Assembly (NCBI GenBank): GCA_963514005.1
Contig: OY740781.1
Location: 176,700,001-176,764,000 of the forward strand
From: Raja brachyura
Lineage: Eukaryota
Length of the DNA: 64,000 bases
Direction of reading: 5' to 3'
Below are positions 1,850-56,700 of this stretch, piece by piece. Position numbers and translations under genes: made by a program. Every line of letters begins with the position of its first letter. Position 1 is the first letter of the stretch. The notes below the pieces were generated by a model. That model had not been told where the DNA came from and ran no database searches. It saw only the letters and a list, made by a program, of their open reading frames with translations.

Positions 1850-2039
1850 CTTGCATGTGAAGACTGGACTGACTGACACTCCACTAGGATTGTTGGTCTT
1901 AACTTTGCTGTAAACAATTATATCATTACCAGCATCTTTTTCTTGTCCAAAGTCCATGAATGTTTTGCAGGTTTCCAAGTTAATCCCCGTCTTTCCTAGA
2001 ATTCCTCATTTGAATTTCATCAATCAGGTTTCTACATTG

Positions 2040-2120
2040 CGAAAGTGCTGGAGTAACTCAGCGGGTCAGGCAACATTTCTGGTGCACATGGATAGATGAC
2101 ATTTCGGATCAGAACCCTTC
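2040..2120 (-). mobile_element. Solo Penelope terminal-repeat (pLTR) fragment with 10-bp TSD
   Basis: gctggagtaactcagcgggtcaggc...cccttc matches the end of the Penelope at 42.2 kb. Flanked by ttctacattg at 2030-2039 and 2121-2130. Confidence 0.75.
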
Positions 2121-4423
2121 TTCTACATTGGACACTTTCCTGAAAATGCTTTGATTTAACAATCTAATGACACGCTAAATGATTACAATTTGACAGTTTC
2201 CTCCAGTGCCTCGACCTCTTCAACCATTTGAGTGGGATCACTCTCTCCTTCCATTCATATCCATACAGTTGCAACCGAAGACATGTTCCAGTTGCTTCCC
2301 TCCAGTACCTTTTTTTGTGACGACACACACCAGGAACACCAGCAATTCTAAATGGTTAAAAATGTGCTTGGTATACAGCAGCTAATAGTGCCGCAAGAAC
2401 TGTTATATGCGTACCCACACCTTTTCAGCTACAAATAAAAGCAATGCTCCGGTCCCCTTCTATTTTCATTGTCAGCCATGAGCTATACTTGGAGCCCCTC
2501 CTATTCTCACCTTCATGCTGCCCCTTAGCAACCTCATCCTGGAAATGTAATGCCAGTTTCAGTTTCCACACATAGAATACAAATTTCTACCATTCAAACC
2601 CTTCTATGGCGTCCACACAACCTATAAAAGTCCGTCTAGGCACGCAACGCACACTGTACTATGAGCAGACATTTTCTTGAACTAAATATTGGGAAGACTG
2701 AAGCAACCAACTTCAGTGCCTGGTGCTATCTTTATTTCCTAGTAACTGATATTAAAACAACAACAGCACTAAATACTGCAGTTCTATAGAATGGCTAGGT
2801 ACCTTTGTGATCTCTTGGCACAAGCATAACAATTAATACATTAAAAGCAGTAACCTTTCACTAAGTTATCATCTCTATTAAAAATTAATATTTTTCTATT
2901 GTTAATAGTTTGCCACCAAAGGTATAAACAGTTTCTAGGACAGAGTTTCTAGGTTTATTCTAAACTTTTATCTACCTCTTTTACTTGAAATCCAACCTAT
3001 TTAAAGACCTCTCAATTCTGTTCCATTCATTTAGAACAAACGAACAACCATTTTTAATCTCCAGAACAAAGACTGCAACACTGAATGTATCAGTATGGAC
3101 TTTATGTATTATAAAGCATAATAGAAAATATGCGTATATGTATTGTTACAATTTCTGGCTTAAAGTGGTCAAAAATGTTTCCAATATAAGAAAACCTAGG
3201 GATTTACAAAAGCCTCTGTGTGTGGAAAATTTGCATTTTGAACCTGTCGGTGCCCTTTTGATCTGCTCAACAATAAAGCATCAATACATACTGTGAAGCC
3301 TCTCAAGAGGGTTTGTTAGTGCTAAAAACAAAATGCATGAAGCAAAATATTTTTGCAAATTTGCCTTCTTCAGAGCACTGATCAGATAGTTGGTCAGAAG
3401 GTTAAACAGTATCAGTGCCTGCTGCTTCATTACATGCAACAGCCTTTCACTCATTATGCCACGTTTTTATAAAGTAAAGAGTTCCAGTGTTACAGATCAT
3501 TGGTTGGGTGCCGAAGTAACTGCATCTTTATCTAGTGCCACTGACTGGCCTCCCTATACTCCATATGCATTTCTTTACAATCAGAAATGTCATTTCTCAT
3601 CAGCAAATGAGTTCATCAATTTAATGAGCGTTCACACAAATCTGGCTTTTAATGAGAGCACGTACCACTGTGGCATGGGCTCTGCCCCAGTGCTGCCAAA
3701 ATGCAGTTGATGAAACCATGACATAAATTTGAGAATACATTTCTCTTTGTGTGTCTCCTTCATCCAATTAATTCACCATAAAATGCTCTAACACCCATGT
3801 TATTTTTGTACAATGGTTTAGAAACAGGAATAGAGCAGTGTTCTTACCTAACAACGTCAACAAATTACCTGTGAAGCAAAATAGTATCAACTAAATAAAT
3901 ATAAAATCTAATTTAAGATTCATTTGATTGGCTTATGTTAAAATTTGCCACAAATAAATATGAATGACAAAAATCATATATCTTAAAGGACTGCATTTCC
4001 CTAAATTTTAAATCAGAAGTTGTTTGATTTTCCAGATAGTTTAGCAAGGACTATAGTACTGCCCAAAGCAACACAAACTGTTACCTATATATAAAATGAA
4101 TTTTATTCTACGACCAGAATCATTTGTATGAATATTTGAATTCGTTTTGCTGATTAAAAATGTAATCAACATTTTATGGTGCCATTTCTGCATTTAATGT
4201 TTACTGCAACATATTAGCGATTAAAGCACTGGAGCTGCTACTTTTTAAATGATTTGTTTCACCTTTACATGTATTTTGGAACTGTATTTGGGTTTGAAGT
4301 TTGGTACAAATTTTAGGTCACAGCAAAGTTCCTCAGCTTCCATTGAAATAAAGTCATTCATGAAGACCAGTGAGGAGCACAATGGTTACACAGTCTATAT
4401 TATTACCAACTAGAGGAAAAAAC

Positions 4424-4716
4424 AGTGGCGGCACAGTGGAGCGGTCGTTGAGTTGCTGCCTTACAGCACCAGAGACCCGGGTTCGATCACGTCAACGGGT
4501 GCTGTCTGTACGGAACTTGTACGTTCTCCCCGTGACTGCGTGGTTTTTTCCGAGATTTACAGTTTCCTCCCACACTCCAAAGACATACAGGTTGGTAGGT
4601 TAATTGGCTTGGTATAAATGTAAATTGTCCCTAGTGTGTGTAGGATAGTGTTAATGTGTGGGGATTTCCGGTCGCTGTGGACTCAGTGGGCCGAAGGGCC
4701 TGTATCTCTAAACTAA
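4424..4716 (+). mobile_element. tRNA-derived SINE (HE1/V-SINE-like)
   Basis: A-box-like ggcacagtgg, B-box ggttcgatc, core gtttcctcccacactccaaagac, CR1-type tail gggccgaagggcctgt followed by ctaaactaa. Confidence 0.85.
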
Positions 4717-5619
4717 CCCAAATATTTTAGCTGAAAATATCAGTAAACTACAAAATGTTATATGAAATAAACAACCCACTGTGACAAAATTAACAAAGTA
4801 ATTTACATATAAATATACATAATATACTTGAATAGTATATTTATACATAACTGAAGAGTATTGAATGGAAATTTAAAAAAAGGTTGAGTTGTAAAGGGCT
4901 CTAGCAGTAATATTTTAGTTTTACTAAATTATTTTAGTTTCAAAACTAGTTGAGTTATTTTCTCCTTCCTTCCACTGAGAATCTTCTTCCGTTCTTGGCC
5001 ATTCCACATTTGTAAGCTTGAACATGTGCCAATAGGCACTGTGCAATGAAGGATGACTAAGGCATACCTTTTCTGATATCTTCAAGCACAGTCCAATTTC
5101 TAAGCGTTCAAGGGGTTTCGATCAGCATTGAGAACCATGGATTATTTATTCTTTTAGATGGACCAAAAGCTGTTCCAAATGTGATCATACGGCTCAATAT
5201 GAATGGTGAACAGATGCCACTTAGACTTGTCCAAGTCCAGGTGCCTTTATTCATTGGACTAGTATGATGGGGCAAAAGGAACAAGGAGGACAATTGAAAC
5301 TGAACAGAAAATACAACCCAAGAAATTATGGCTACATTACTTAGAAACGTATGGTTTACAGAGAACTTGCAAAAGAAACAATAGTTGACTTGCAAATATC
5401 AAGTCCAAAGCATCAAAGAATATTAAAAGTTCTTTTCACCCATAGAACATTTCCCCTCTTTCTTTGGAAGTTATGATGTTATTCACAACAGGTCAAGATA
5501 CTAATGATTTCCAATTGGCATTAAAATAAGGTTGAACATAAGGCTCAAAAGTATAAAGAAAATCAAATACTTCTTTCATTGTGAAAGATGTGTCAGTTCA
5601 TTATGATGTACTTTATATA

Positions 5620-7000
5620 CTGTGCCCTCCATAATGTTTGGGACTAAAACCCATCATTTATTTATTTACCTCTGTGCTCCACAATTTGAGATTTTTTTAA
5701 TAGAAAAAAAATCACATGTGGTTAGAGTGCACATTGTCAGATTTTAATAAAGGCAATTTTTATACATTTTAGGATCACCATGGCAAAATGAGAGCAGTGT
5801 TGAAACATAGTCCCCCCATTTCAGGGCACCATAATGTTTGGGACAATGTCATGTGAATGAAAGTAGTCTTGTTTAGTATTTTGTTGCATATCCTTTACTG
5901 TTTGAAGTCTGCAAATCATGGACATCACCAGTTGCGGGGTGTTTTCTCTGGTTATGAACTTGAACAGATAGGATGTGTCTATGCACTTCAGAATTTATTT
6001 TGCTACCACCATCAGCAGTTGTATCATCAATGAAGGTAAGTGAGCCAGTGCCTTCAGTAGCCATACATGCCAAGGCCATAACACCCGCAACACCGTGTTT
6101 CACAGTTGAGGTGGTATGCTTTGGATCTTGGGCAGTTCCTTCTCTCCTCCATACTTTGCTCTTGCAAAGTAAGTTAATCTTCGTCTCATCTGTCCACAAT
6201 ACCTTTTTCCAGAAATGTGTTTGCTCTTTTAAGTACTTCTTTGCAAACTGTAACCTGGCCATCCTATTTTTGCGGCTAACCAGTGGTTTCCATCTTGCAG
6301 TGTAGCCTCTGTATTTCTGTACATTAAGTATTCTGCGGTCAGTCGTCATTGACAAATCCACAACTGACTCCTGAGGGGTGTTTCTGATCTGTCGGACAGG
6401 TGTTTGGGGATTTTTCTGTATTATAGAGAATTATTTTGTCATCAGCTGTGGAGGTCTTCCTTGGCCTGCCAGTCCCTTTGCGATTAGTAAGCTCACCAGT
6501 GCTCTCTTTCTTCTTAATTATGTTCCAAACAGTTGATTTTGGTACGCCTATGGTTTGGCTGATGTCTCTAACAGTTTTATTCTTGTTTCTCAGTCTCATA
6601 ATGGCTTCTTTGACTTCCATTTGCACAACTTTGTTCCTCATGTTGATAAACAGCAATCAAAGTTTCCAAAGGTGATGGAAAGACTGGAGGAAAGACTAGG
6701 TGTTGAGAGCTCTTTTACACCTGCATTAAGGAGGTATTTAAACATACCTGAGCAATTACTGTCATCTGTGAAGCCATGTGTCCCAAACATTATGGTGTCC
6801 TAAAATGGGGGGACGATGTAGAAACACAGCTGTAATTTCTACATGGTGAAACCAAAATATATAAAAATACTCTTTAATAAAATCTGACAATGTGCACTTT
6901 AACCACACGTGATGTTTTCTATTGCAAATCTCAAATTGTGGAGCATAGAGGCAAATAAAGAAATGATGGGTCTTTGTCCAAAACATTATGGAGGACACTG
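5620..7000 (-). mobile_element. Tc1/mariner DNA transposon, IR/DR type, internally deleted
   Basis: ~225-bp terminal inverted repeats (ctgtgccctccataatgtttggga / tccaaaacattatggaggacactg) with inner direct repeats at ~5824-5846 and ~6780-6800. TA on the left flank; the right flank reads TG. Confidence 0.92.
5873..6641 (-). pseudogene. Tc1-family transposase pseudogene
   Basis: ORFs 6339..6656 (paired-like HTH, GRPRKT) and 5873..6361 (RLQFAK, WKKVLWTDETK, TVKHG) are frameshifted, and the rest of the DDE domain is missing. Confidence 0.88.
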
Positions 7001-7228
7001 TGGGCAAATACGTTAAATGCGGACAGGGGAAATTATACAAAGTTCATACAAAAAAAGGGATACTGCCAACAAGAAATATGAAGTTTACTTCATCATAAAC
7101 AGATTTTACCACAATGTCAAAAGCAACAAGCAATGTTGGCAAATTTAATCCTTTTAAGTTAAACTTTCCAGTGCCATAACAGTGTCATTTGTGTTTCAAC
7201 TCGAATGAACAGCCACCGTTGTACACTT

Positions 7229-7415
7229 GTGGAAACAAGGAACGGCAGATGTTGGTTTACACAAAAGGATACAAAGTGCTGAAGTAACTCAGCTGGTCAG
7301 GCAGCATCTCTGGAGAACATGGTTAGTGATGTTTCAGGCCAGGACTCTTCTGACCTATCCAGTTGTCCAGAGATGCTGCCTGACCCACTGAGTTACTTCA
7401 GCACTTTGTGTCCTT
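7229..7415. mobile_element. Fold-back Penelope pLTR element
   Basis: Inverted arms aaggatacaaagtgctgaagtaactcag... / ...ctgagttacttcagcactttgtgtcctt. Weak possible TSD gttgtac (7218-7224, 7419-7425). Confidence 0.8.
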
Positions 7416-7730
7416 ACAGTTGTACTCTTAAATTGTAACAGTGTGAAAGGAGAATTCGAGTTATAATGCTCGTGCAGCACCTCAAGACATTTGCTGTTAA
7501 AAGTACTACACAAAAGTTAGGTACATAAAATACTTCTTTGTTCAAGTTTCTCTTAAACATGTAGAGCATAGATGAGTATGTGCCTGAAAAGAGATAGTAT
7601 GAATTTAAAAAGAGGAATAAACCTTTTTTTGTTTGGGGAAAAATGTACTGGCATTGAAGATAAGATTGCCTCCAGATGTTATCGACATGGGCTTCCAAAG
7701 GCTATTTAATCAAGTTTGCAAAAGTGAATG

Positions 7731-7939
7731 TTAGCAAGCATGAAAGGCCATGGAATTGAAGGTAACTTGGCCACATAATAATTGTTTGGGAGAAAGGACA
7801 GAGAATGAGGACAAGGGAAGATTTTATGATTGGCGGAATATGACAAGTGTAGAACCTCAGGGAACTGTATTGATGCCTTCACTTTTCATCCTCTGCAGTA
7901 ATGAGACAGGTAAAATCTCAGTTCTTTCATACAAGCTTC
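7731..7939 (+). repeat. Old CR1 RT relic, copy 1 of a ~200-bp local direct duplication
   Basis: Colinear with 11959-12163. Encodes a decayed TSxEPQGTVL (GVPQGSVL-like) motif. Confidence 0.8.
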
Positions 7940-8457
7940 CAGTTACAATGTCGAAACAAAGAGCCACAGATGCTGGTTAATACACAAAAGACACATCGTG
8001 CTGGAGTAACTCAGCAGGTCCAGCAGCATACAGGGAGAACATGGATAGGTGATGTTTTGGGTTGTGAGGGGGAGAGGAAAGCTGGAAAAAGGAGGAGCCA
8101 GGACAAAGTGTGGCAGGTAATAGGGCGACACAGGCAAGGGAGATTTTTGGACATACAGATGGTTGCAACTAAGGCCAGAGAAAAGATCAATGGGTGTAAA
8201 AAAAGTTAGAAGAGTTGCAGATTGTGAAACTTCGGATGGAAAGGTGGGGGAGTGGTGTGGGAGGAAAAACAGGGAGGAGTCCAGGTAGGGATCTGGTGAG
8301 GGAAGGTGGGAGAGGAGGGGGGAGAAATAGAGGAGGTGGCTGTGGGGCAGTAAATAGAGGGGGTGGTGTTACTTAGAGGTTGTGTGAAATTGGAGAATTC
8401 AACGTTCATATCGTTGTAAGCTACCCAAGCAGAGGTGTTGTATCATCTGCTACCCAA

Positions 8458-10306
8458 GCAGATGATACAGTGGTCTACACGAAGTCCAGATACGACCTTG
8501 GTAAGGCCATCAAACAGGCCAAAAGGGAGTTCTGCTCCAAGCTGGAGGATGAGACAGATGTTCGGCAGCTGTGGCGGGGACATGAATGCAATCACCTCCT
8601 ACAAGGCGAAACCAGGAGGCAGCTCGGATGTCGGCGATACATCACTCCCTGATCAGCTCAATGCGTTTTACGCACGCTTTGATAGGGAGAACACCGTGTG
8701 CCTTCCCAAGCCCCCATTCGCTGTGATGGTATTTCAGTCTCAGTCACAGAGGCCGACGTCAGGAAATCTTTCAGAGGGGTGAACCCTCGAAAAGCGTCTG
8801 GACCTGATGGTATACCTGGTCGTGTTCTAAAAACCTGTGCGGACCAACTGGCTGGAGTTTTTACGGACATTTTCAACCTGTCACTTCTGAGGTCTGAGGT
8901 GCCCACCTGCTTCAAAAGGGCATCAATAATACCGGTGCCCAAGAAGAGCAAGGTGACATGCCTCAATGACTATCAACCAGTGGCACTAATGCATGTGGTG
9001 ATGAAGTGCTTTGAGAGGTTGATCATGGCGAAAATCAACTCCTACCTCGACAAAAACCTGGACCCACTGCAGTTCGCTTACCGCCACAACAGATCAACGG
9101 TGGATGCGATCTCGCTGGCCCTCCACTCCGTTCTGGACCACTTGGACACCAAAAACTCATATGTCAGGCTGTTATTCATCGACTACAGCTCGGCATTTAA
9201 CACAATCATCCCCTCCAAGCTGGTTACCAAACTCGCAGAACTGGGTCTCTGCGCATCCCTCTGCAATTGGATCCTCGACTTCCTCATTCACAGACCACAG
9301 TCTGTTCGTATTGGTGGAAATGTTGCAGACTCAATAACAATCAGCATGGGAGCACCTCAAGGCTGCGTGCTCAGTCCCCTGCTGTACTCACTCTATACTC
9401 ATGACTGCGTAGCCGGTCATAGTGCAAACTCCATCATCAAGTTCACTGACGACACCACTGTTGTGGGACGTATCACTGATGGGGATGAGTCAGAGTATAG
9501 AATAGAGATCGAGCGACTGTCCATATGGTGCCAGCGCAATAACCTGGTCCTCAACACCAGCAAAACAAAGGAACTGATTGTGGACTTTGGAAGGAGTAGG
9601 ATGGGGACCCACAGTCCTGTTTATATCAACGGGTCGATGGTTGAAAGGGTCAAGAGCTTCAAATTCCTGGGCGTGCACATCTGTGAAGATCTTTCCTGGT
9701 CGGAGAACACAGATGCAATTATTAAGAAAGCTCATCAGCGCCTCTACTTCCTGAGATTACGGAGAGTCGGTCTGTCAAGGAGGACGCTCTCTAACTTCTA
9801 CAGGTGCACAGTAGAGAGCTTGCTGACTGGTTGCATCGTGGCTTGGTTTGGCAACTTGAGCGCCCTGGAGAGGAAAAGACTACAAAAAGTAGTAAACACT
9901 GCCCAGTTCATCATCGGCTCTGACCTTCCTTCCATCGAGGGGATCTATCACTGTCGCTGCCTCAAAAAGGCTGGTAGCATCATCAAGGACCCACACCACC
10001 ATGGCCACACACTCATCTCCCTGCTACCTTCGGGTAGAAGGTACAGGAGCCTGAGGACTGCAGTGACCCGGTTCAGGAATAGCTACTTCCCCACAGCCAT
10101 CAGGCTATTAAACTTGGCTCGGACAAAACTCTGAACATTAATACCCCTCCATCTGTTATTTGCACTTTATCAATTTATTCATTCATGTGTGTATTTACGT
10201 ATATAATTGTAGTCAATGCCTACTATGTTCTGTTGTGCCATGCAAAGAAAGAATTTCATTGTCCTGTCAGGGACACATGACAATAAAGTCTTTTGACTTT
10301 GACTTT
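8458..10306 (+). mobile_element. Rex1/Babar-clade LINE, 5'-truncated, relatively young
   Basis: Motifs [65 protein letters not shown] and LPSGRRYRS. 3' tail gacaataaa plus (ttgact)n. Confidence 0.92.
8698..10134 (+). pseudogene. Rex1/Babar reverse transcriptase ORF (5'-truncated, frameshift near 8700)
   Basis: 478-codon open frame covering the RT domain, with FTDD in place of FADD. The upstream part continues in another frame (8435..8782); no endonuclease domain is present. Confidence 0.88.
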
Positions 10307-11336
10307 GTTCCTCCAGTGTGCGTGTGGCGGCCTCACTCTGGCAATGGAGGGAGGTCCAGGAAAGAAAGGTCAGTGTAGAAATTGAAAAGGGAGTTAAAAT
10401 GGTAAGCAACTGGGAGATCCAGTAACCCTTGGCGAAACAGCGAAACAGTCGCCAAGTCTATGCTAGTCTCGCCTATGTACAGGAGACCACATTGGGAACA
10501 CAAGATACAGTACATGAGGTTAGAGGAGGTGTGCGTCAACCTCTGTCTCACCTGGAAAACCTGCTCGGCTGCCCTCAAATTCACCTAGACTATTTCTGAC
10601 ACCTCTCTCCTTTTTTGATCTCTCATCACAGGGGGCAGAGTATCAACTGACGTCTCGACTCCCACTGTTATCTGGACTATACTTCCTCCTGCCCTGCAAC
10701 AAAAGAGTTCCCCTGGTCCTCACCTTAAACCCCACCAACCTCGGCATCCAACACATCACACTTCAACATTTCCGTCGCCTCCAATGCGATCCCACCACCA
10801 GTCACATCTTTCCATCTCCACCCCTTTCCGCCTTCCACAGAGGCCACTCCCTCCGCAACCCCTTGGTTCACTCATCCCTCCCCACCCAAACCACCCGTTC
10901 CCTGGGTGTTTTACCCTGCAGCCATAGGAGATATAACACATGTCCCTAGACCTCCTCCCTCGCCTTCATCCACGCATCCCAGCTGTTGTTCCAGGTGAGA
11001 CAATGGGTTACGTGCACTTCTTCTAACCGCATCTGCTGTATCCGGTGTTCCTGGTGTAGCTTCCGGTACATCGGCGTGACCAAGTGTAGATTCAGAGGCC
11101 GATTCGCTAAACACTCGCGCTCGGTCTGCCAACACCTGCTGAGTCTCCCAGCTGCTAATCATTTTACTTCTCCTTCCCATTCCCACATTGACCTTTCTGT
11201 CCTGGGTTTCTCCATTGCTAGAGTGAGACCACACATAACCTGGAGGAACAGCGCCTCTTATTCCGCTTGGATAACTTACAACCCATCAGTATGAATGTTG
11301 AATTCTCCAATTTCAGGTAACCTCAAATTAACCACG

Positions 11337-11368
<32 letters not shown>

Positions 11369-11958
11369 CCCCCAAACCACCCATTCCCTTTTCCTTCCCT
11401 CCTGTGGGCCCCACCTCAACCGTCTATTTCTCCCCCCTGCTGCTTTTGTCCCACTAGCTTCACAATCCACAACTCTTCAAACCTGCCTCACATCTATTAT
11501 TCTTATCTCTGCCTGTCCAAAAATCCCCCTTGTCTGTGTCGACCTATTAGCTGCTATGGTCTTTCCTGTCTTTCCCTTTTCCTAGCTTCCTTCTCCCCCC
11601 ATCCGCCCCACAATCAGTCTGAAGAAGGCTCTCGACCCAAAATGTCACCTATCCATGTTCTCCAGGGATGCTGCCCGACCTGCTGAGCTACTCCACCACT
11701 TTGTGTCCTTTTAATCTTGCAGTTATTATGGCCCAGACAAAGTAACACAGACTACGCAGGCACAATCAGGAAAGCAGGTGGAATTCCAATGAGAGGAAAC
11801 GTGGGATGGTCTACATGGATGGCAGAAAACAGAGTAAGATGATTCCTTAATGTCACAAGAATTTACAGGAACAAAGACATTTAGGAATCCATATTCACAT
11901 CTTTGAAAGTTAACATATTGATTTTTTAGAATTCAATGGGCCAATAAATTTGGAAAAC

Positions 11959-12163
11959 TTAGCAAGAATGAAAGCCATGAAATTGGAAGCAACGTTATCA
12001 CATAATAATTGTTTGGAAGAAGGGGCAGAATGTGGATAAGGGAAGATTTTCTGATTAGCAGAATATGACAAGTGTGGAACTTCAGGGAACTGTATTGATG
12101 CCTCCACTTTTCATCTTGGGTAGCAATGAGACAGGTAAAAACTCATTTCTTTCATACAAGCTT
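11959..12163 (+). repeat. Copy 2 of the ~200-bp local duplication
   Basis: Shares e.g. cacataataattgtttgg, cagggaactgtattgatgcct, aatgagacaggtaaaa and tctttcatacaagcttc with 7731-7939. Confidence 0.8.
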
Positions 12164-12476
12164 CAGAGGACATGTAGCCCCTCAGGTCCACTTCAGCCCC
12201 CAAGAAGCTCACAGCTAATTTAATCATTGTCTGTTCTGATCATTGGTATCAACTCTAATTTCAGTCTGTACAACATAACCCACAATTGCCATTTAGTCCA
12301 AAAAACAATCTCAGTTTGAACACTTCTCAATCCATGATCCTGCAAGGATTCACAACTATCAGAGAAAAAAAAAGCATTTGTCTTAAATCTGTCTTTATTC
12401 TATCCCCACTATTCCAGATTTACTCAACATCCTAAATTCCAAGCTCTAACAATTCTCACAACGTAGAGCTAGTCAA

Positions 12477-12646
12477 AGTGTTAAAGAAGGAACTGCAGAT
12501 GCTGGAGAATCGAGGGTTACACAAAAAGCTGGAGAAACTCAGCGGGTGCAGAGTCTGAAGAAGGGTCTCGACCCGAAACGTCGCCTATCTCCTTCGCTCC
12601 TTAGATGCTGCTGCACCCGCTGAGTTTCTCCAGCTTTTTGTGTAAC
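12477..12646. mobile_element. Fold-back Penelope pLTR element with 15-bp TSD
   Basis: Perfect inverted arms ggttacacaaaaagctggagaaactcagcgggtgcag and its reverse complement. TSD cgtagagctagtcaa at 12462-12476 and 12647-12661. Confidence 0.88.
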
Positions 12647-13299
12647 CGTAGAGCTAGTCAAGTTGCCTCAGAATCCTGTGTCTCAGTAAAATTGCCATTA
12701 AAAATATTCAGCAAATTTAGGCACAATTTAGTTAAAATGTCTTTATAAAAAGACAACCCTTTTATTGGAGGATTCAACTAACTGAACCGTCCTGATATCC
12801 CAACCTCCTTACAGTGGTCAATGTTCCATTTGCCTTTCTGATTACTTGCATGCTCTGAAAAAGAACAGCCAGATCTCCCTGAACACCAACATTGATAGAC
12901 ATTGATCTTAACATCTCTAATCACTACATCTGTTGTTCTTTTTGTTTACATGTTCTCTGCTCAACTGTGCTCTTCAGATACTTATTTCCTATTGCTTTTC
13001 ATTCCAAAATTATATTTCTTTTACCTCGTTTTCCTTTTTCATGTTTTAAAATTAAATTTCCATTTGAATGTATTGCTGAAGAAAACAATGAGGAGAAGTA
13101 AAGCCAATATTTGGTTTCTGGGAATGTGTAGCGACATTTTTGTCAGGGCTTCAAAATGCGATTCAGAATGTATGGCTCAGTAAGTAAGTGGAAATTTGAA
13201 ATTACTGTACGATGACACAATATATTAAAGGATTTTAAAACACTCAACAAATCAGGCAGTAACTATGCAGAGTTACCATCTCAAATCGTGGTCGGAAGA

Positions 13300-16600: not shown

Positions 16601-17384
16601 TCATCCTTTCAGGCAGATATAAAGTCAGCCATTACTTCTAATCAATCTGAGACACTTCAGTATGCCTGGAGATTTCCCTGGCATGTTCTTGAATAAACCA
16701 GATATCACTTAAACTCGATGGACTCATGAGTCATCTTTGTCCCACAACAATCCTCAAACTTAACAGCCACAAAACCAATGAAAGACTTTGCTCCCACTGA
16801 GGCTAAACATCGCAATGTAATCAAGCGGCCATTGTGATGCAAAACAAGATGTTGGAGCTTGATTAGGATGCACTATAAAATGCTTTAATCCAAGTATATA
16901 CTGGCAGTCTTCTCCTCCAGTTGATCGCAACACAACTAATGCACTTTTGAGTAACATATATGCAGCAGTTGTGACAAATGTCCTCGCTGTGATATGTGGC
17001 ATTGTGATAAAGACATTAAGAAGGGAAAGTGGAAAATTAATTCAATAACTCAATATGTACTATGCTTTTATAACACAAGACTATGAGGATCATATGAGAA
17101 GACTATGACAAATAGGGCATGTTTCAATAGGATCATGCCCGATGTTTAAGCTCGCTGCCACTTTTGTGCACTGACCCTTATCCAACAAGTTTCTTAGCAT
17201 CTACAAATCTATTGATGTACATCAAGATTATATGCAACAACTTAGCCTGCAGAGCATTCTTTAGTACATCATCAATTGAAAAGATCCACTACTTTCAGAG
17301 TGAAGGATCGCAATCCTTTATGGACAACCCCTTATTTTGATACTTTAACTGCCGGTGCAGACATCAAAAGAAACATTCCTGGAG

Positions 17385-17500
17385 ACACGTGAAACTGTAG
17401 ATCCTGGAATCTTGAGCAAAAAGTAAGGAGATGAGGAACTCAGTGGGTCAAGCAGCATCTGTGAAGGGACATTTTGGATCAGGACCTTCTTCAGATTGAT
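17385..17500 (-). mobile_element. Old solo Penelope pLTR fragment
   Basis: gaactcagtgggtcaagcagcatctgtg...ccttcttcaga. Confidence 0.65.
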
Positions 17501-18143: not shown

Positions 18144-20515
18144 AATATGACTTCAAGCCTTTTAGCAAATCTTACTTTAAGCAATTTTAGTTTCCTAATA
18201 AAGTAAGAGACATTGTTTTTCAGTGAAGATGCGGAACAAAATCATGATGATTATAGTCACTGTCACTTCAAAATGATAAATGTCAAAGCACTGAAGATAT
18301 TGTTGACAGATTAAGTTAAAAAAAGAATGTTATATGTACCTGATTTTATTTCTAGCAAGATGAACATGCTCCAAGCTTTAAATCAACTTTCACAACAGGA
18401 ATTTATATTTGCTTCCAATATGAATTATTTCCTTGAGCTAAGAAAAATCATGTAATACAAACTCTTGAAACAATGTGTTGGAAGGGGAGTGTCTGCTCAA
18501 CAATGTTGGAGAGCAATCCATTGCAGAAAAATGTATTTCCTTTATAATCATACCACAAATTCACCACCTCGTCATTCTTTCTTACATTGTAATATCTCAC
18601 AATATCAATACAAGCAAATGTTGCATTAATTTTGCTGGTTACATGATTTGTTTTGTCATTCAGTTTGTCCTTATGGATTTTCATTGGTTACATATCAAAA
18701 CAAATGGGTTTGGTGTGTATGGGAGAAAGGGCAAGAGAGCAAAATGACAATTTCTGGAGACATTGTCCCTACACATTTCCAAATGTTCAGCTTAGAATCT
18801 TTAGAAGCAACGATCATCATTTTCAATTTATTGTCCATTGAGATGTTCAATAGAGGTTCTTCTTACAGTTTGATCGTCTCAACATGCATATAACTTCTCC
18901 GACCTAATATCGTGCAAATGCACAAAATGCTATGCTTGGCTTCTTTCTCCTTTTGTAGGGCCCCCGGCAAAACAATTATTTACTTAATACCTCTTCCAAA
19001 TTTATACACTATATTCATTGCTCACAATGTGGTTTTGACTCTGTTGGAAAAGCCAAATACAAGTACACTGGGTGGCACTTCCTTTACCATTGTAATTCTA
19101 TACCACATTCAAATTTACAGAGTTTATCAGTAAAACTTGACGATAGGTTGATTTCATTATATTTTAAATCAGGACGATATAGCCTTCCAACCTCAAGACT
19201 GAGGTCAACAAAAGGTCCCATTTGTTCAGACACTACTTATTCGTGACAATTTAGTTGCTACTATTTAAAACTCCTTTTTATTTATTTGCCCCATTATTAT
19301 CACTTTACCACTATTTTGACTATTTCTTTAGTCATATCATCGCACATCCCTTCCAACCCTTCAATGGTCTTATCCTTGCCTGCCCCACTTTTCCTTTGGC
19401 TTTTCAGTACCTTATTAATCGGTACATCTCTCGTATCTTCTCTAGCTGACATTATTTTTAATTCACAATATGAAACAAAATCCAAAATAATAGAACAAAT
19501 CACAATACAGGATAATACAGATAAATCACAAAACAGGAATTCAAAATGAATCTGCAGCAATATCTTCATGGAAAAATGAAGTACAGGTAACCCAAACATT
19601 TTCAGATTGGAAATACAGCCACCCTGCATTATATTTAAATACAAACATAAACCAACCAAGACCAACATGGAGTTAAGCCAGGGCATTTTACTCAACCCAG
19701 TGGAAAATAGAAAAGCAATAGTAGAGCAGAAAGAACATGGAAATTGTGATTTTAAGATATGGGAAATATGTTAGTTATCTATTTCACAATAGGCTCCAAG
19801 GTCATGCAAAAATAACAGTAACGTGGTCTTTTCGCAAAGTCCAGGGTTACAGTTCTCACCAAACAATAAGATACTGCTGACCGTATGCCATGCAGAAAAA
19901 GAACCAGAATTATTTCCTCGTACCGAATGAAGTAGTTAATGGCCTAGATTTTGAGGTCAGGAGTGAGGCACTGGTATTGCCAGATGACTTTAGAGCGAAA
20001 AAAGCTGCCTACAAAGAGTTCCCAATCTTTGAGCCAAAAGCATCTAATTTTCTTTGTTGTCAAATATCACTTTAGTTAATTCCTGGTGCCTACCAGTCAA
20101 GATGTCATCAAGCCAGATCAGCAGCTAATTAATATAGAGTTCTCACAGAAAGAGTATCGGGAACCAATTGTTAATTACTTTTTGAAACATTATATAATGT
20201 GAAAGAATTGAGTGGCAACTTAGTGCATCTCAACCACCACTGAAGTAGAAACAAAAATAACACAAACATCAAAAAAATATGTTAATTATTTATCAGTAAA
20301 ATTGAAATATACACAATACACTTACATAAATAAAATGTGAGTGCCAATTCGCTTCAAAGTACAGCCTATTAACAACTTACTTACAACTCTTGTACATGTA
20401 AGATTTTCTGGATTCCTTATCATATTATTCCATAATAAATAGCCTAAATTGACATCAGGTCAAGCGATATCAGTTTAATTGCAGAGAAGTCTGCAAGCAA
20501 CACATAGTGTGAAAA

Positions 20516-20668
20516 GGAGTGAAGGAGATAGGCGACGTTTCGGGTCGAGACCCTTCTTCACCCGAAACGTCGCCTATCTCCTTCACTCCTTAGATGCTGC
20601 TGCACCCGCTGAGTTTCTCCAGCTTTTTGTGTAACCCTCGATTCTCCAGCATCTGCAGTTCCTTCTTT
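20516..20668. mobile_element. Fold-back Penelope pLTR element with 17-bp TSD
   Basis: Arms ggagtgaaggagataggcgacgtttcgggt / acccgaaacgtcgcctatctccttcactcc. TSD aacacatagtgtgaaaa at 20499-20515 and 20669-20685. Confidence 0.88.
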
Positions 20669-21464
20669 AACACATAGTGTGAAAACATTGACTCACTGAC
20701 AGCAACATCAGAATTTCTGTATGAAACTACATATATGAAAAACCTAAAGTTAGTGTCAGTTACAGAGAGTAATGATTGCGATATGATGACAGTTTCGCCA
20801 TTGTAACTACCATAAAATAGAGGCAAAGAAACAGCCCAGATTCCTGTCAGCAGCAATGTGACAAAATTTGCCACTGACCTCGAAGAAAGCTGCCCACAAA
20901 GCTCTAGTAATCCCTATGATGTGAATGTCTCTTCTCCCAAGATCTTCTAAGGGAATCGCTGGCTTCCAGCTACAGTTATGTCATCAATTAGGCTGAACTG
21001 CCAATCACAATGGGGAATCAATTTACAAAGTACAAAACAAGGACTTGAACATCAATAAAATTAAGGTAGCTGAAATATCAAACTTCTAACAACAAAATTA
21101 ATTTTTTACATCATTTTAAAATCCACATAAATAAAGAATTCTGAGATAATGGCTGTCTGCATGCATAACATTAGTTGTTTTAAAGACCATAGGGATAATT
21201 ATAATGGCAAGAAACAATGCACAACATCATCAAACTTATGTTTTACAGAATAATTGATTTTGCATATTAATCTGTGCATTTAGCCCAGAACATTATACTA
21301 TAAAACATCAAGAATCACAAGAGGATTATTCATTTATTGGCATTTACTGCCCATCTCAAATGGTCCTTGAACAGATGGTGGTGAATTACCACCTCGAACC
21401 TCTGCAGTCTTTCTGGTGAAAGTACTACCATAATGCTGCTGGGGAGAAAGGTGCAGGGTATAAA

Positions 21465-42005: not shown

Positions 42006-42222
42006 GGCACATTACAAAGGATTAAAGAATGGTATTGCCCATTGAATGTGCTCTTCCTGACGTAGAATATTTTCTAGGTCAACTACATTTTGCATAAGTG
42101 GATAAGACTGCCATGGTGGACAAACAGATTTTTCTTTCTTCTTAACGTGGGTCAGAATTTTTTTCAGCCCCAGACACTGCCAACACCACTCCAATCAATT
42201 CTGAGGAACTGATTAACAGTCT

Positions 42223-43303
42223 GGGGTAGACAAAAATGCTGGAGAAACTCAGAGAGTGAAGCAACATCTATGGAGCGAAGAAATAGGCGACGTTTCGGGT
42301 CGAGACGCTTCTTCAGACTGATGTGGGGGGGGGGTTGCAAGAAAAAGAAAGGAAGAGGCGGAGACAGTAGGCTGTGGGAGAGCTGGGAAGGGGAGGGGAA
42401 GGAGGGAGAAAGCAAGGACTTCCTGAAATTGGAGAAGTCAATGTTCATACCGCTGGGGTGTAAACTACCCAAGCGAAATATAAGGTGCTGCTCCTCCAAT
42501 TTGCGGTGGGACTCACACTGGCCATGGAGGAGGCCCAGGACAGAAAGGTCGGATTTGGAATGGGAGGGGGAGTTGAAGTGCTGAGCCACCGGGAGATCAG
42601 GTTGGTTTTTGCAAACTGAGCGGAGGTGTTGGGCGAAGCGATCGCCAAGCCTGCGCTTGGTCTCACCGACGTAGAACAGTTGACACCTGGAACAACGGAT
42701 GTAATAGATGAGGTTGGATGAGGTGCAGATGAACCTCTGCCTCACCTGGAAAGACTGCTTGGGTCCTTGGATGGAGTCAAGGGGGGAGGTAAAGCGACAA
42801 GTGTAGCATTTCCTGTGGTTGCAAGGGAAAGTCCCAGGAGATGGGGTGGTTTGGGTGGGAAGAGACGAATTGACCAGGGAGTTACGGAGGGAGCGGTCTC
42901 TGAGGAAAGCCGAAAGGGGCGATGGGAAGTTGTGGCCAATGATGGGATCCCATTGGAGGTGGTGAAAATGTCGGAGGATTATATGTTGTATGTGACAGCT
43001 GGTAGGGTGGAAGGTGAGGACAAGGGGGACTTTGTTCTTGTTACGAGCGGGGGGGGGAATGGGGAGTGAGAGCAGAGCTACGGGATTTTGAGAAGACCCA
43101 GGTGAGATCCTCATCTATAGTCGAAGAGGGGAACCCCCGTTCCCTAAAGAATGAGGACATCTTCGATGCCCTGGTTTGGAACGTCTCATCCTGGGTGTAG
43201 ATGCGTCGTGAACGGAGGAATTGGGAGTAGGGGTTAGACCTTACAGGAAGCAGGGTGGGAAGAAGCGTAGTCCAGATAGCCATGGGAGTCAGTGGGTTTG
43301 TAA
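42223..43303 (-). mobile_element. Penelope-like retroelement 3' part (RT thumb, GIY-YIG endonuclease, pLTR)
   Basis: PYSQFLRSRRI and FFRERGFP; then SSNLIYYIRCSRCQLFYVGETKRRLGDRFAQH and EQHLIFRLGSLHPSGMN. pLTR at 42223-42320. Confidence 0.92.
42400..43114 (-). pseudogene. Penelope GIY-YIG endonuclease region (open frame, element 5'-truncated)
   Basis: Part of ORF 42164..43114, with an IY..YVGET motif and Cys/His linker. Frameshifted from the RT part; the frame runs on into the UTR. Confidence 0.8.
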
Positions 43304-44129
43304 AAGTTTGGAAATACTCAACCTCCACATAGGAAACATCTACTTCAATTCAACACTTCTTTGTGACAGTATAGTAATTTACCACGTGCCATCCTACTGC
43401 GTGAAGACTGACTCCTCCAGAAAGTGTAAACCAATTGCTTTTAAGCTTAAATTTAAAGATGCGAAACACAAATTGGTCCAGCTGAAACATTCATCCACGA
43501 AGTGGGAAAATGTCTAGTGCCATATGGACAAAATAATTCAGTGTTAACAGTAATAATTTCTATCAGCAGTTTTACAATAGAAGATCTAACATTGATACAA
43601 TGTTATTTAAATATATAGTAACCATTTTCTATTTGAGATATTATTTCTTTTAAAAATGCATTTTTAAAGCCATTTGAAATAAAGCTTTTTGTAACTTCCT
43701 TATACGCATGTTTGTCAGAGATGCAACAGATAGTCTCTTGCTATAGATGCTCTTCTTAAAAACATACTAGCAGTTAACCTCAAGGAAATGCAACAACGTG
43801 TCAATAGATACTCTTCAAAATTGGATATTCCAACTTTTTGAGTGCGGATATGCGAAGTAGAATGCTCATTAAAATTAAAAATTAGCATTAAGACAAAGAC
43901 TATCATTGGACCACATAAATAGCATGTAGAAACCGATGAGCATTATATTCCATTCCAGCATAAAACTCCATTAATCCAAAATACTCGGACTTTTAGTGAA
44001 TCCAAACCAACAGATTTTCCTGTTAATTTAATGTTATTCCAAAGAATATTCCAATGCACATTTAAGATTCTACTCTGTATCACTTTAAAAAAGGCAATTG
44101 ATTGAAAGGATTCAACAAAAAATGCGGGT

Positions 44130-50640: not shown

Positions 50641-51675
50641 CATGTAGCTAGCTGCTGGACAAAGCTTACATAAACTAGTAATCTTGTGGGGAAATCCATT
50701 CACTGAAATATCCAAAAACTGCAGAATTGAGTTATTCAACAGTATTTTGAATGAAATAGCAGTGTGCTCATCAACTAAAAATACTGATTTTTTTTGTGAA
50801 TTTCTTCATGTTAAATTATAGATAAATATCTCATCTAATGTGCAACCAGTTATTTTTACATGGAGAAAATATCCATTTGCCAGATCTGGTAGGAATGTTG
50901 TACATCATTGTACTTTACTAAGATTTCAAGAAAGGAGAGTATTTATCACAAATTTTTACAAGTCATGTATTTTCTTCTTAACAGTAAAGTCGTGACCTAA
51001 TATTAAACTTCTGTTCTGTGTCATATCAAAAAACAAATTTAAACAAGAACCCATAGTGATCGATTATTTCAGGAAGTTTTTCAAAACATTTGCTCTTCTG
51101 TTTCATTTCAATCTGTCTAAGTTTTAATATTGGCAGCACAAACTATGCATACCATCTGGCAGTTGGTGTTAGTTTTGAAATTTATATCCTGTTCTTTCTT
51201 TCCAAACAGCAAATGTTCTAAAAAGATTTCACACCTTATACAAAATAGTATATTTAACAATTAAAGATAGCAGAGTCAGGGGATCTGGTGAGAAGGCAGG
51301 AACGGGTACTGGATGTGGATGATCAGCCATGATCATAGTGAATGTCGGTGCTGGCTCGAGGGGCCTAATGGCCTACTCCTGCACCTATTGTCTATAGCTT
51401 ATAGTTTACCTGAGCATGTTTATCAGCAGTATCCAATTTTCCTGCCCCCTCACAAAATAGTAATGACTCCGATTTTTGGTGGAAAGACTAGTTTCAAAAG
51501 AAATGTCCAGTATTTTCCCACACAAGTGGAACAGAGTCCAGTGTTCTGCGGATGTGTACATTAACACTAACGTCCTGAACTTGCTGGTTGCTGTTTCCAA
51601 CTGCAATCTGACTTTGAACTGAAGACGACCAGCAGCAAAGTTGCAGCACTTAATGGGCAACATTAATGCTGGGGA

Positions 51676-51891
51676 TAGACAAAAATGCTGGAGAAACTCA
51701 GCGGGTGAGGCAGCATTTATGGCGCGAAAGAAATAGGCAACGTTTCGGGTCGAAACCCTTCTTCAGTCTGAAGAAGGGTTTCGACCCGAAACGTTGCCTA
51801 TTTCCTTTGCTCCATAAATGCTGCCTCACCCGCTGAGTTTCTCCAGCGTTTTTGCCTACCTTCGACTTCCAGCATCTGCAGTTCCTTCTTA
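51676..51891. mobile_element. Near-perfect fold-back Penelope pLTR element with 17-bp TSD
   Basis: ~90-bp arms centred on cttcag-t-ctgaag (centre 51767). TSD aacattaatgctgggga at 51659-51675 and 51892-51908. Confidence 0.92.
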
Positions 51892-54800
51892 AACATTAAT
51901 GCTGGGGAATTCACCCACATTATATCTGCCATTTTAGAGGGGCAGGGACAGAGATAATATTCTCATACTGTTGCCAGCAGAGATGCGCCATATTTAAATT
52001 AATTAAACTACTTTGTTTATTTAAATAGTTATTTTAAATGTATATAATTATTATAATGTTATTTTTACAATGTATATAATTATTACAATTGTTATTTTCT
52101 TAAAAATGTTAATAATGTGAATATTTTGTAGGTATAAAATATCTCTGAATGTGTCTGAAAATAAGAAAATTTTAGAACTGTATTTTTATAGCTTTTACAG
52201 GGGCATGGTATAATGTCCTGTCAAATAAATCCCCCCCCCCCCCCCCCCCCCCGAATATTTCTGGATCTCCACCTTGTGTTGTAACTTACTCCCAGAGACT
52301 GTGGTACCACGCCATGCAGTACCATTGAGAAGAGAACTGGATTTGTGCATCGTTGGCCTTGGGTGATCCATCTAGGTAGCTATACCTTGTTTTCATAGGA
52401 CAGCAGTAAGTGCTTGTAGCTTTCTGCTGGGTGGAAAATTAGCCCATTACCTCATTAATAAACACTCGACATTCAAACCTTTCTATTGGTGTTATTAAAG
52501 CACATGCTGACAATTGTGTGAGCCTATGGAGGGTCCTGTTCACAGTCTTGCTCCTCGTTACTATCTCTTCTCAAATAGCTACGTAAAGTATCTTAGTGCT
52601 CGCTGAAAAAAATATGGCGGTAAGAACCTGATGCACTTCGTAATTAAACTAGTGCCCCCTTATATATTGAATTGCAAAACTGTGTGGTTAAAAGACAACT
52701 GTACTGCACATGGAAGTGCAGGGAATGGAGGGATATGGATCATGTACAGGCAAATGATATCAGTTTAACTTGGCATTATGTTCAGCACAAACATTGTGGG
52801 CCAAAAGGCCTGCTCCTACTGTTCTACATTCTACGTACTGGCACTGAAATTGAAGATATGTGACAAAAGATGGGAAGCATTGCTAGAATTGAAAGCATGA
52901 AGAAATTGAAGTATCATAATTACACAAACTCCCCCTATCTAAAACGAGTAAACGACTATTTTATTAGAAAAATATTTTTTTATAATTTGCAGTTATAATA
53001 TTGTAGGATGGAAATATTATTGTTCTGTATAAAAATTACCATTCTTCCACATATTACATTTGTGTATTATTTTCTATTAAAAAAACAGCTTTGTCAAAAC
53101 ATCAACCTTGTACTCTGTACCCCCCATCAGACTTTCAAATAAACTGCATTCGGTATTCTTTTATGTGCTTGTCACAAAAAGGTCAAACAATTTATTGACC
53201 ATCATTGGATGCTCTATGTCAATGTTGAAGGAAATATGAGGTAAGGTTATGGCTACTGTTGAGGAGTTCATTGATAATGACATACCTGCCTTCACCAACC
53301 ATTATCCATAGTACAAACTACTTAGGGATAACTGAAAAATCAATATCCTCCGAGTGCTGGCTCCTGCCTTTATCCTGTTTGATTGTCAGCTGCTGTCTGG
53401 GGTCCAATCTGACAAGAAAGAGGCTGTGACTACATGATGCCTTCAAAATATCCAACAATATGGAACAATTCATCAGAACAGTAAATTTTGTTTCCATTCT
53501 CTCCTTATCAATTTGCCTTGGGTGAAGACTGTCTGCATAGTGCATGCTCTCCATTTGAGAATGAATACATACAAACTAAACATACCGCTGCCCTCAGCTG
53601 TAAACCAGGAAATCCAATGACAGTTTAAACAAAACAGAAAGTTGTAACTGTCATAATCTGCATTACACTTTCACGCCAACAAGGGTCTTATCAGTCAGGG
53701 CAAGCCCTGGAACACATAGCTCAAGCATCCCTGAATCAACCAGTCATAAATTTTCACGCATTGTGTGATAAAACACACAAAATGGTAATGAATTTTCAGG
53801 TCCCTTGCATAACACACTACACTTGGAAACATTAAACGAGGGCAAAGAACCACAAAAGAGCTCAGGATTCTTTTAATAGGCTGAAAAGGCACAGGTTGTG
53901 GCAACACATGGTAACTTGTTGAAGTTACATGGTTGAAATGCATCAGAAAAAATGGCTAAAGGGGGAAATTAAAAGTAATCCAAAAATGATAACAAATAAC
54001 AGAAATTTAAAACAGAAAGGTTTTAATAAGTATAGGTGATGTGAGCTAGCATTTTATAAATATAAGCATTAACTATGAGAAATAAACCAAAATGCTGAAA
54101 TCAAATACCTTAAATAATGGTCGTATTATCAAAAGAGGACTTTCTATGTTTTGTCACTATGTCCTTAAATAAAGCTTTAAGGCAAGAGAACTACATTCAG
54201 AACAATTAAGTTCATACTGATCAGACCTGGAAACCAGCAGTTTTAACTTTGCATCTTTATGGAACATTGCCAGACGGATAGTGCAGTGTTTTTATTTACC
54301 ATTCTAAATGACTATCAGGAACCTAGCTTAGAAAGTCTAGAATTAGCAGCACTTAGCTGGACCAGCAGTTTCATCAGCTTGAATTCCCAGAAATCAGCAT
54401 CCAAAAGAGAAAGAAATCTAACAATATATGAAGCTGATGGGATCTGTAGCAGTTCTCAACTGAAAGGTTCATCCACAAGATACGAAAGGCAAAATTATGA
54501 GTCTCAGGAGCCTGGAAAATAACAGTATTTTTCTTAAACTTACCGTGTCACAAAGTACTCCCCCTTCATTCAACAGCTAAATTGATCAACTGAGCTCAAG
54601 CAGTGAATGGACCGTAACTTTTCATTGTTGTAAAGATTCATTAAACAATCCAAGTTTTACCATAGTTTACTGTAATAAAGCACTCCATGAAAATTATGGG
54701 GTAAAAAGTAACTGTAATTGATAGAGACTTTAAAAAAAATTCTGATCCAATTTTTGCAGTTACAACTTAATGATGACTTATGCTTCTGTTTAAATACCTG

Positions 54801-56059
54801 TCCCGTTGTGTGCACATCTGATAGTCAAAGGAAAGGTTGTGGACAGTGTCCAGCCAGCAGCCAGATCACTCTGAAGCAGTCACAGCCATGGATCAAACAT
54901 TTTACATAATCTCCAGGACAACATAAAACCCACCTTCACCACTGAGCTGACAGGGAGGTGAGTATAAAACTAAAACTTTTAAAGGCTACAGATAGTAAGG
55001 AAAGATCTAAAAAATATATACAAAAGCACTGGTAAACTCTGGAACCCTACACCAAAAATGCAAAGCAACCAACGTAAAAACATATATTGGAAATGGCATC
55101 ATAAAAAAAATTACATAACTTCAGCTGCTAAAGATGTTTTCTCAGGAAAATATTTTAATGATACACAAAAAAACAAACTATTAGCACTGAACTAAACACA
55201 AGACTAAATGATTCAAATCAGCCACACTGCACAATAAAAACATGCTAATGAGGCGTTACATTTGCTAATAGATACTTTTTAAAAGACATTTTTCTCTAAA
55301 GATTTCAAACAAATTAGTAATAGCAATCAATGGCTCCGGAAGAGAATCAAATCTAATTTATGTAGGGATTCTCCATACAACAATAAAATGTTTTAAATTT
55401 GTGTATTTAAAATGATTACATAAAAAGGTTCTTATCCTAAACCTGAAATCAATTATGTGCCAATGACTAACCTCTAACCTATATTTGCATGTCTATGTAT
55501 ATTTGTAACACCTCCGTATAAAATCAAAAACACAAACACCTCCAACTTAATGTAAGATCAAAAGTAATCATTTACCCGCACTGCTGCAAATTTGCCATTA
55601 ATGAGAAAACTAATCTGACGGTAAATTGCTTCTTTTCAACAAAATTACTCATTTATTCCACTGGTATATAAATATTTTATCCAACATGCAAGTACAACTC
55701 AAGTGGTGACTTAGATTGTTAGCAACTCACAGCATAAGACATATAGAGCGTTGTGAATATAACCCACGTTTGCATAAAAAAATGAGTAACTTTGACAATT
55801 CCTTGTGCTATTACAGTCAGAAGCCAGTAAATTTGCAGGAACCAGTTATTTGCAGTATTCTGGCTGAAAAATGGGTGTTGTACAGAATAGCTAAGCATGC
55901 AAAATTGTGATGGATAAGTAGGACTGAAGAGGCAGAACATGGGCAGCATCAGGCTAGATAATATCAAGTTTATATCGGGTGAAAAGGCAGATATTGAAAA
56001 AAAACAACATAGATGAATCAACTAAAGACTTCCCGCAAAAGCACAAGTCAGCCCTGTCA

Positions 56060-56700
56060 ACCCATGAAATCAATGGCAGAAATTGTTTCTCCCACTTACA
56101 CATCCAATCTCAATTTTCTTTGATTCCCATAATCCTAATTATCTACTAGTTTCAGTAAACAACTTGAGCATCCAGAGCCCTCAAGATAGAGGATTTCAAA
56201 AGTTCACAAACTCTTCATGGAAGAAATGTCTCATGACTTTATGATATGCCCCAATTTTCAACTCTCCAGACTGAAGAAACAGCCTCTTAGCATCTACCTT
56301 GTCAAGGCCTTGTTTAATCCTTTATGTTTGAATGATGCTATCTCTAATTCTCCTGAATTTAGTACTAGCTCTCCTTTTAATTCAACCTTCTAGTTCAAGG
56401 CATTAATCCAGTAAATGTATAATTTGCTACCAGGTGCATCTTCGCTAAGGAAAATAAATTAAAACTTCATATGGTACTCCAGAGAGATACCAAAGGTTGG
56501 AGTAACTCAATGGGTCAGGCAGCATCTCTGGAAAAAGGGAATAGGTGATGTTTTGGATTGAGACCCTTCTTAGACAGGGTCCCACCAAAGTGCTGCACAG
56601 CTCTCCTCCTTGCTCCTAAAATTCAAAACCCTGGTAGAAATGGTTAACGTACTTTTTACATTACTAATTGCTTGCTGTACCTGCTTATTAATTTTGCTTT
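56060..56700 (-). mobile_element. Very old CR1 3' relic containing a solo pLTR fragment (~56495-56575)
   Basis: gcatctaccttgtcaag and ctaattgcttgctgtacctgc; insert ggagtaactcaatgggtcaggcagcatctctgg...cccttcttaga. Confidence 0.55.

Follow-up and report, generated by a model that had tools for sequence, protein, structure and literature searches.

The stretch of DNA studied here, called the window below, comprises 64,000 nucleotides of Raja brachyura (NCBI GenBank assembly GCA_963514005.1, contig OY740781.1, positions 176,700,001 to 176,764,000 of the forward strand). It carries a family of hairpin insertions, along with solo arms, built from the terminal repeat (pseudo-long terminal repeat, or pLTR) of a Penelope-like element (PLE), many of them flanked by target-site duplications (TSDs). 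We number the repeat from +1, the A of TCAGTCTGAAGA; on this scale, the core of a predicted hammerhead begins at +4 and its predicted cut falls after +31. The arms have two classes of 3′ end, at about +97 (short) and about +133 (tailed). For comparison, we used contigs of a roughly 1%-diverged relative, organism H, from three runs on two samples of one study. The hairpins and solo arms are as follows.

7229..7418, hairpin of an older subfamily: tailed arm on the − strand (about +4/+8 to +134), short arm on the + strand (+32 to +92); 11-bp TSD, one base mismatched; shared with organism H
12477..12646, youngest-subfamily hairpin: tailed arm − (+59 to +134), short arm + (+1 to +95)
12462..12476 and 12647..12661, TSD of hairpin 12477: 15 bp, exact; empty site in organism H
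20516..20668, youngest-subfamily hairpin: short arm − (+5 to +50), tailed arm + (+20 to +133)
20499..20515 and 20669..20685, TSD of hairpin 20516: 17 bp, exact; empty site in organism H
28464..28611, older hairpin: short arm − (+5 to +100), tailed arm + (+80 to +129); a search gave no TSD
29099..29312, hairpin: short arm − (+1 to +99), tailed arm + (+16 to +135); exact 11-bp TSD
51676..51891, hairpin: short arm − (to +93), tailed arm + (to +132); exact 17-bp TSD; arms meet at a TCAG-T-CTGA palindrome
2040..2123, − strand, solo short arm (+6 to about +90); 10-bp TSD
17382..17499, − strand, old solo arm, tailed (about −1 to +130); no TSD on search
56481..56575, − strand, solo short arm (+2 to +97); no TSD on search
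29564..29661, + strand, old solo short arm (+5 to +99)

A sequence-only reading of the window had placed five hairpins, at 7229, 12477, 20516, 29099, and 51676, and all are present there. Its list did not hold the sixth hairpin (28464–28611), further solo arms, or the hammerhead nature of the motif near the arm starts. The four exact TSDs of 11–17 bp that it reported were recovered (15, 17, 11, and 17 bp), as was the 10-bp TSD of the solo arm at 2040. In every window hairpin, the two arms meet at their 5′ ends and point both 3′ ends toward the target, and the pairing of one full with one shorter arm, described for those five, holds for each. The shorter arm was said to begin at the motif in four of the five, and it does so, at +1 to +5; at 7229, it is the tailed arm that starts near the motif, and the short arm starts at +32. 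Window arms span several subfamilies, with 76–99% identity to script-built subfamily models.

Two of the insertions could be compared with their empty sites. Organism H contigs skip exactly 12462–12646, with a bridging contig in two of the three runs, and exactly 20499–20668 in all three. Both skipped stretches consist of the element plus one TSD copy, with no added letters. Because the empty sites hold a single target copy, the TSDs at 12477 and 20516 are true duplications, as the earlier reading had supposed. Both insertions are present in a run of another organism, and organism H shares the older copies at 2040, 7229, and 17385. The youngest insertions are clean presence/absence markers between close relatives.

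Paired arm ends and a shared 5′ boundary

We sampled 158 evenly spaced 10-kb stretches of the same genome (1.58 Mb) and found 620 strong arms. Adjacent arm pairs were head-to-head in 144 cases, tail-to-tail in 17, and tandem in 36. The hairpins, insertion units of 150–215 bp from which the element body is absent, occur at roughly 90 per Mb, which by rough extrapolation gives about 250,000 in 2.7 Gb. Arm ends were taken from BLAST, since raw nhmmer ends over-extend. The sample arm library begins at −1, so starts there are limited; a set of 53 young arms was therefore read against a natural reference copy with 400 nt upstream. The query of our first genome search spanned a junction and returned junction-biased loci, which were excluded from the sample statistics but included in a set of 29 young hairpins; their flanks were also used in the 53-arm set. 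An exact flanking repeat of at least 8 bp was found at 33 of 141 sampled hairpins with usable flanks versus 8 of 1402 shuffled flank pairs, and 17 of the 29 young hairpins have a TSD of 8–17 bp.

The 3′ ends of the young arms fall in two groups, with 31 of 53 at +91 to +100 and 20 at +129 to +136. The gap of about 36 nt between the two classes is the known 30–40 bp PLE tail. The classes are not combined at random: the 99 classifiable hairpins comprise 86 with one tailed and one short arm, 11 with two short arms, and 2 with two tailed arms, compared with 49, 29, and 20 expected if the classes paired independently (P = 7e-14). The 29 young hairpins, partly from biased searches, include 22 mixed, 1 short–short, and no tailed–tailed pairs, and 6 with an odd end. 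Solo arms (n = 365) divide into 166 tailed, 155 short, and 44 other. In the PLE literature that we searched (mostly outside subscription journals, supplements aside), we found no statement of a tailed/short pairing rule or of twin priming. What is new here is the pairing and boundary statistics, the layout itself having been published already.

The junctions between arms vary, with 128 of 144 distinct; 56 overlap, 6 are blunt, and 82 contain filler. The commonest join, the TCAG-T-CTGA palindrome, accounts for 10 of 144 and occurs across six subfamily pairings. This agrees with the earlier proposal that the hairpins form de novo and do not descend from a master miniature inverted-repeat transposable element (MITE). 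In L191/L192 and L197, the arms are parted by about 150–250 bp of captured unrelated sequence; each arm start of L191/L192 carries an extra G, the TSD is 14 bp, and the arms enclose 147 bp of unrelated sequence.

The 5′ starts also share a boundary. In 102 of 144 hairpins, one or both arms begin no later than +7, and 31 of the 53 young arms start at −2 to +6, where the stop rate per base is 0.07–0.16, compared with at most 0.01 further inside and 0–0.02 upstream. Exact whole-genome counts of copies with a non-native preceding base were 4464 of 22245 at +1, 7033 of 29278 at +2, and 2679 of 31957 at +3; a comparable internal pattern at +16 gave 512 (total for that site uncounted). Solos with unrelated flanks keep the +1/+2 boundary at 45 of 60 loci, and the boundary is therefore not made by arm-to-arm annealing. 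Four of the 53 young arms start instead at −23 to −28, an AT-rich spot that is TATA-like or branch-point-like.

A G accounts for 2356 of the 4464 non-native bases before +1, of which 220 are in fold-back form, and among the 100 matches listed the G:A ratio is 54:35 at +1 versus 12:30 at +16. Reverse transcriptases (RTs) can copy the cap or add a terminal C at the template end, and the extra G fits this behavior. At +2, a number of starts are preceded by a copy of +10 to +13 or longer (L228, L232, L236, L240, and L249–L260); this realignment signature occurs in 638 of 7033 cases versus about 36 by a base-composition estimate. The form is reminiscent of telomerase translocation, with the cDNA realigning on a 4-nt direct repeat. 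We discarded the extra G at +2 as evidence for a cap, because realignment and fold-back obscure it. The evidence for run-off at a template end is good, and that for a cap at the RNA end is only suggestive.

The parent element and its predicted hammerhead motif

Longer copies of the parent also lie in the window.

42225..43310, − strand, 5′-truncated Penelope-like copy: GIY-YIG end (Pfam match, E = 8e-4), pyrimidine-rich 3′ untranslated region (UTR), and pLTR to the short site (+95), without tail
10500..11712, + strand, older 5′-truncated Penelope-like copy terminating at the short site (+97)
7949..8159, − strand, older Penelope-like remnant: 3′ UTR and tailed pLTR

The earlier reading took the copy at 42.2 kb as the source of all the hairpins. 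This attribution fails, as that copy ends at +95 without a tail and the hairpin copies belong to several subfamilies. More complete parents were found elsewhere in the genome as tandem units of 3930 and 4043 bp (L261 and L262). L262 has a 774-aa open reading frame (ORF) with RT and GIY-YIG motifs (Pfam RVT_1, E = 4e-4; GIY-YIG, E = 9e-4; both under the curated cut-offs). The parent has the features of endonuclease-bearing (EN+) PLEs: an RT with a C-terminal GIY-YIG, tandem or partial-tandem pLTRs, and an inverted 5′-truncated copy with an optional tail. Upstream of the GIY-YIG, L262 has a C-x4-C-xx-C linker. A CX2-5CxxC linker marks Neptune and is common to Nematis too, according to the accessible text of PMC8557442, and by this motif the parent would be classed as a Neptune-type PLE. 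Between the ORF start and the RT, L262 (− strand) has a long proline- and GC-rich repetitive region at about 700–2000 in element orientation.

The ORF starts about 33 nt beyond the tail, which makes +1 to +134 the leader; in the full-length tandem units of 3.9–4.0 kb, this leader is the same pLTR. We collected 40 copies reaching the ORF start, of which 16 follow native 3′ UTR, 8 begin at 0 to +6, and 16 begin further inside. Hence 8 of the 24 non-tandem copies begin at the hairpin boundary, although one of the 8 looks like mutated native sequence. Another locus, L189, has an inverted short arm, a pLTR, 110 nt of body, and a second pLTR with tail inside a 15-bp TSD, which is the canonical layout in miniature. 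Since the ORF copies share the boundary and L189 shows the canonical layout, a separate short RNA is not needed. Of the short RNA with a defined end that had been proposed, the end is supported, with 5′ ends piling up at about +1/+2, and the separate RNA is not. The proposed Penelope-mobilised mini-element system is not supported either, as ORF-reaching copies start near the same boundary and an ordinary RNA leader suffices.

The motif at the boundary has the core, extra base, helix II, and palindromic helix III of a minimal type I layout, and a window copy of it is given here.

12555..12582, + strand, predicted minimal type I hammerhead core: CUGAAGA, stem II, GAAAC-GUC; predicted cut after 12582 (+31)

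Across 269 copies, core bases C3–A9 match in 92–97% and helix II pairs in 74–87%; compensatory changes were not seen. We predict from these features that the motif is a minimal type I hammerhead ribozyme. An Rfam scan of the window returned 8 sub-threshold hits, none of them a hammerhead. We rejected a reading of the hairpins as pre-miRNAs, as the Rfam miRNA matches are only the hairpins themselves. In one subfamily model, the helix II loop is UUCG and the cleavage position is U. The hammerheads of metazoan PLEs described in the accessible text of PMC4209133 share the CUGANGA core, the extra base before G10.1, the G10.1–C11.1 pair, the palindromic helix III, and mostly solo copies; opposite-strand hammerhead pairs 100–700 bp apart are also reported there. 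Helix I is only 2 bp here, and the template-defining self-cleavage proposed for those elements leaves no peak in our insertions.

Arms starting at the predicted cut numbered 3 of 288 hairpin arms in the sample, with no peak. Genome-wide, purine-preceded starts came to 627 at +32 versus 876 at a +34 control, a control raised by likely 1-base deletions; G-preceded rows were similar in number, and purine-preceded matches at the cut site were 4 among the 100 listed. We therefore rejected the ribozyme cut as the junction-defining end. The missing +32 peak bears on insertion templates and says nothing on catalysis. It agrees with in vitro work on Poseidon of Anolis carolinensis (PAc), where the RNA substrate was uncut and hammerhead cleavage was not needed (PMC11167929).

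Probable asymmetric twin priming and its alternatives

The published PLE insertion unit consists of a pLTR, an adjoining inverted 5′-truncated copy, a one-sided 30–40 bp tail, and a TSD (PMC8557442; Adineta Pen2a, PMC3846280). As far as these sources describe it, the hairpins resemble this unit in having inverted pLTRs arranged head to head, a tail of about 36 nt confined to one end, a long TSD, and junction palindromes. They differ in lacking the body and in their size and density; furthermore, the pairing and the 5′ boundary are quantified here, and the published cases are single examples. In the accessible account of PAc in vitro, two internal RT start sites bound the tail, both target strands are cleaved and extended, and the protein needs RNA about 55 nt past the RT start sites (PMC11167929). 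PAc belongs to the Poseidon clade with its start sites inside the ORF, whereas the element here has a Neptune-type linker and both sites in the leader before the ORF.

The TSDs, geometry, end classes, pairing, varied junctions, and boundary are features of the DNA itself, and we think that the hairpins are probably separate TSD-flanked insertions made by asymmetric twin priming on the leader of the element RNA. An RT–GIY-YIG protein, a dimer by analogy with the anole element, would nick both strands 8–17 bp apart. One 3′-OH would start synthesis from the +133 site and its counterpart from the +97 site. Copying the 5′ leader of an ordinary transcript, each cDNA would extend at most about 135 nt before running off the RNA 5′ end, which is probably a capped start of transcription at TCAGT. 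Trimming of both cDNA ends would then precede their joining by microhomology or a short templated filler. Solos would arise by loss of one arm, and priming in the downstream pLTR would yield long 5′-truncated copies and the canonical inverted-pLTR structure. We infer that the protein is a dimer, that priming occurs at two sites, and what the RNA end represents. The hairpins would probably be dead-end stubs and not a separate mini-element system.

In L1 twin priming, both target strands prime, the inversion lies inside the TSD, and the join is made by microhomology. The second L1 priming site is internal and variable, and the two arms hardly overlap; here, the same leader would be copied from two fixed sites.

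Several observations weigh against asymmetric twin priming as set out above. One arm falls outside both end classes in 45 of 144 hairpins, and 13 of the 99 classifiable hairpins violate the pairing. Non-CpG variants are common to both arms of a hairpin in 77 of 1134 cases (6.8%) versus 203 of 5787 (3.5%) between hairpins, a weak sign of shared origin. In 17 cases, microhomology between the TSD and the arm ends followed no consistent pattern and so does not establish annealed priming. For PAc, no difference in start site between strands was seen in vitro, and the accessible text leaves inverted junctions unaddressed (PMC11167929); the pairing rule is therefore not accounted for by that assay. 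Among TSD-anchored solos (at least 8 bp) starting at +1, only 1 of 8 has a lone extra G, and for TSD-anchored +2 starts, 9 of 10 fillers end in G, several of them repeating the element's own +6 to +13. The sequence at the boundary also reads as a 3′ splice site. Additionally, the D. virilis Penelope start of transcription lies 46 nt before a 75-bp intron ending at the hammerhead (PMC2377424; PMC4209133), about 120 nt upstream of the equivalent point.

The last two points lead to an alternative that keeps twin priming but places the boundary either at an RNA end processed at a 3′ splice site (a pyrimidine tract and a YAG that ends at +2) or where the RT stalls on the folded ribozyme. The upstream sequence does fit a branch point, pyrimidine tract, and CAG; the D. 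virilis intron ends at hammerhead helix I (PMC4209133, as far as accessible), and four young arms start at −23 to −28. We nevertheless regard it as unlikely. A constant upstream exon was absent from 60 loci, the spliced ORF-end form had 30 occurrences of which 1 was exact, 230 starts gave no clear spliced upstream sequence (2 hits, neither clean), and no GT-AG-type joint occurred among the 15 joints listed of 60 in RNA-like contigs. Splicing from an ORF-end donor to the acceptor-like site was rejected, as spliced copies were not found, though this test is weakened because PLEs retain introns in genomic copies.

A second alternative is self-priming, in which a single cDNA or antisense template folds back at the palindrome near the motif and extends on itself, with the tail arising from endonuclease resolution (proposed in PMC3846280 and PMC8557442, as far as accessible). 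The prominence of the TCAG-T-CTGA join, recurring stem II joins, and fillers that are often fold-back copies all suit it, and a single template would naturally yield one arm with a tail and one without. Most junctions, however, are asymmetric or filled, and the arms of L191/L192 lie apart within one TSD. Solos without a partner arm also end at +1/+2, the short end corresponds to an RT start-site class that recurs in solos and long copies, and few private variants are common to both arms. Self-priming seems improbable.

We find it harder still to credit a dedicated short non-autonomous RNA, retrozyme-like or like a short interspersed nuclear element, transcribed from mini copies as the template of a self-propagating system. 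Most arms are indeed minis, with an ORF link or pyrimidine-rich upstream flank in only 58 of 620 strong arms, and an internal promoter could allow their transcription. Furthermore, tandem pLTR-derived retrozymes are known in vertebrates (bioRxiv 10.64898/2026.07.22.740005); from what is accessible of that source, these non-LTR retrozymes are likewise non-coding, hammerhead-bearing PLE pLTR derivatives, but they form head-to-tail tandem arrays, whereas ours are head-to-head single insertions with TSDs, and the sample's 144 head-to-head against 36 tandem pairs do not match the head-to-tail hammerhead units of a retrozyme. Copies reaching the ORF start have the same boundary, young minis are 95–100% identical to the pLTR of full-length units, and minis lack the stretch of about 55 nt beyond the RT start sites that the anole protein needs (PMC11167929).

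Finally, a master MITE-like palindrome moving as a unit has next to no standing and is ruled out for the bulk of the hairpins by junction diversity, together with a commonest join spread over six subfamily pairings, asymmetric ends, and TSDs of 8–17 bp; the one hairpin pair that recurs with identical junctions (L199, L296, and L297) has common outer flanks and is therefore a passenger in a larger repeat. That GC-rich dispersed repeat of at least 1.7 kb (L199, L227, L296, and L297) carries two hairpins and further PLE pieces with the same junctions.

Asymmetric twin priming may extend beyond these stubs. We suggest, with belief falling a little short of even, that PLEs in general integrate by obligatory asymmetric twin priming, with protomers at the tail and short sites, run-off at a capped start just upstream of an uncut hammerhead, and sometimes telomerase-like realignment. 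If true, one mechanism would produce the pLTR boundary as well as the inverted pLTR and its one-sided tail; for these last two, the published ideas are self-priming, endonuclease resolution, and ribozyme-defined circles. For the existing in vitro system, the stubs predict that the start sites are used one each per target and that RNA left uncut, with its start immediately ahead of the hammerhead, serves as template. The stubs form a very large natural record, about 250,000 by the extrapolation above, and annotation should treat them as PLE stubs rather than MITEs or pre-miRNAs.

Other features of the window

An intronless ORF with Mab-21 and Mab-21_C domains lies at 62216–63355 on the + strand, and it looks like MAB21L2. 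Other remnants lie at 772–2005, 8686–10134, and 5873–6430; two are fragments of long interspersed nuclear elements with an RT (Pfam RVT_1), and the third is a fragment with inverted ends, presumably Tc1-like. Additionally, 76 bp at 19506–19581, outside this repeat family, are missing from the organism H contigs.

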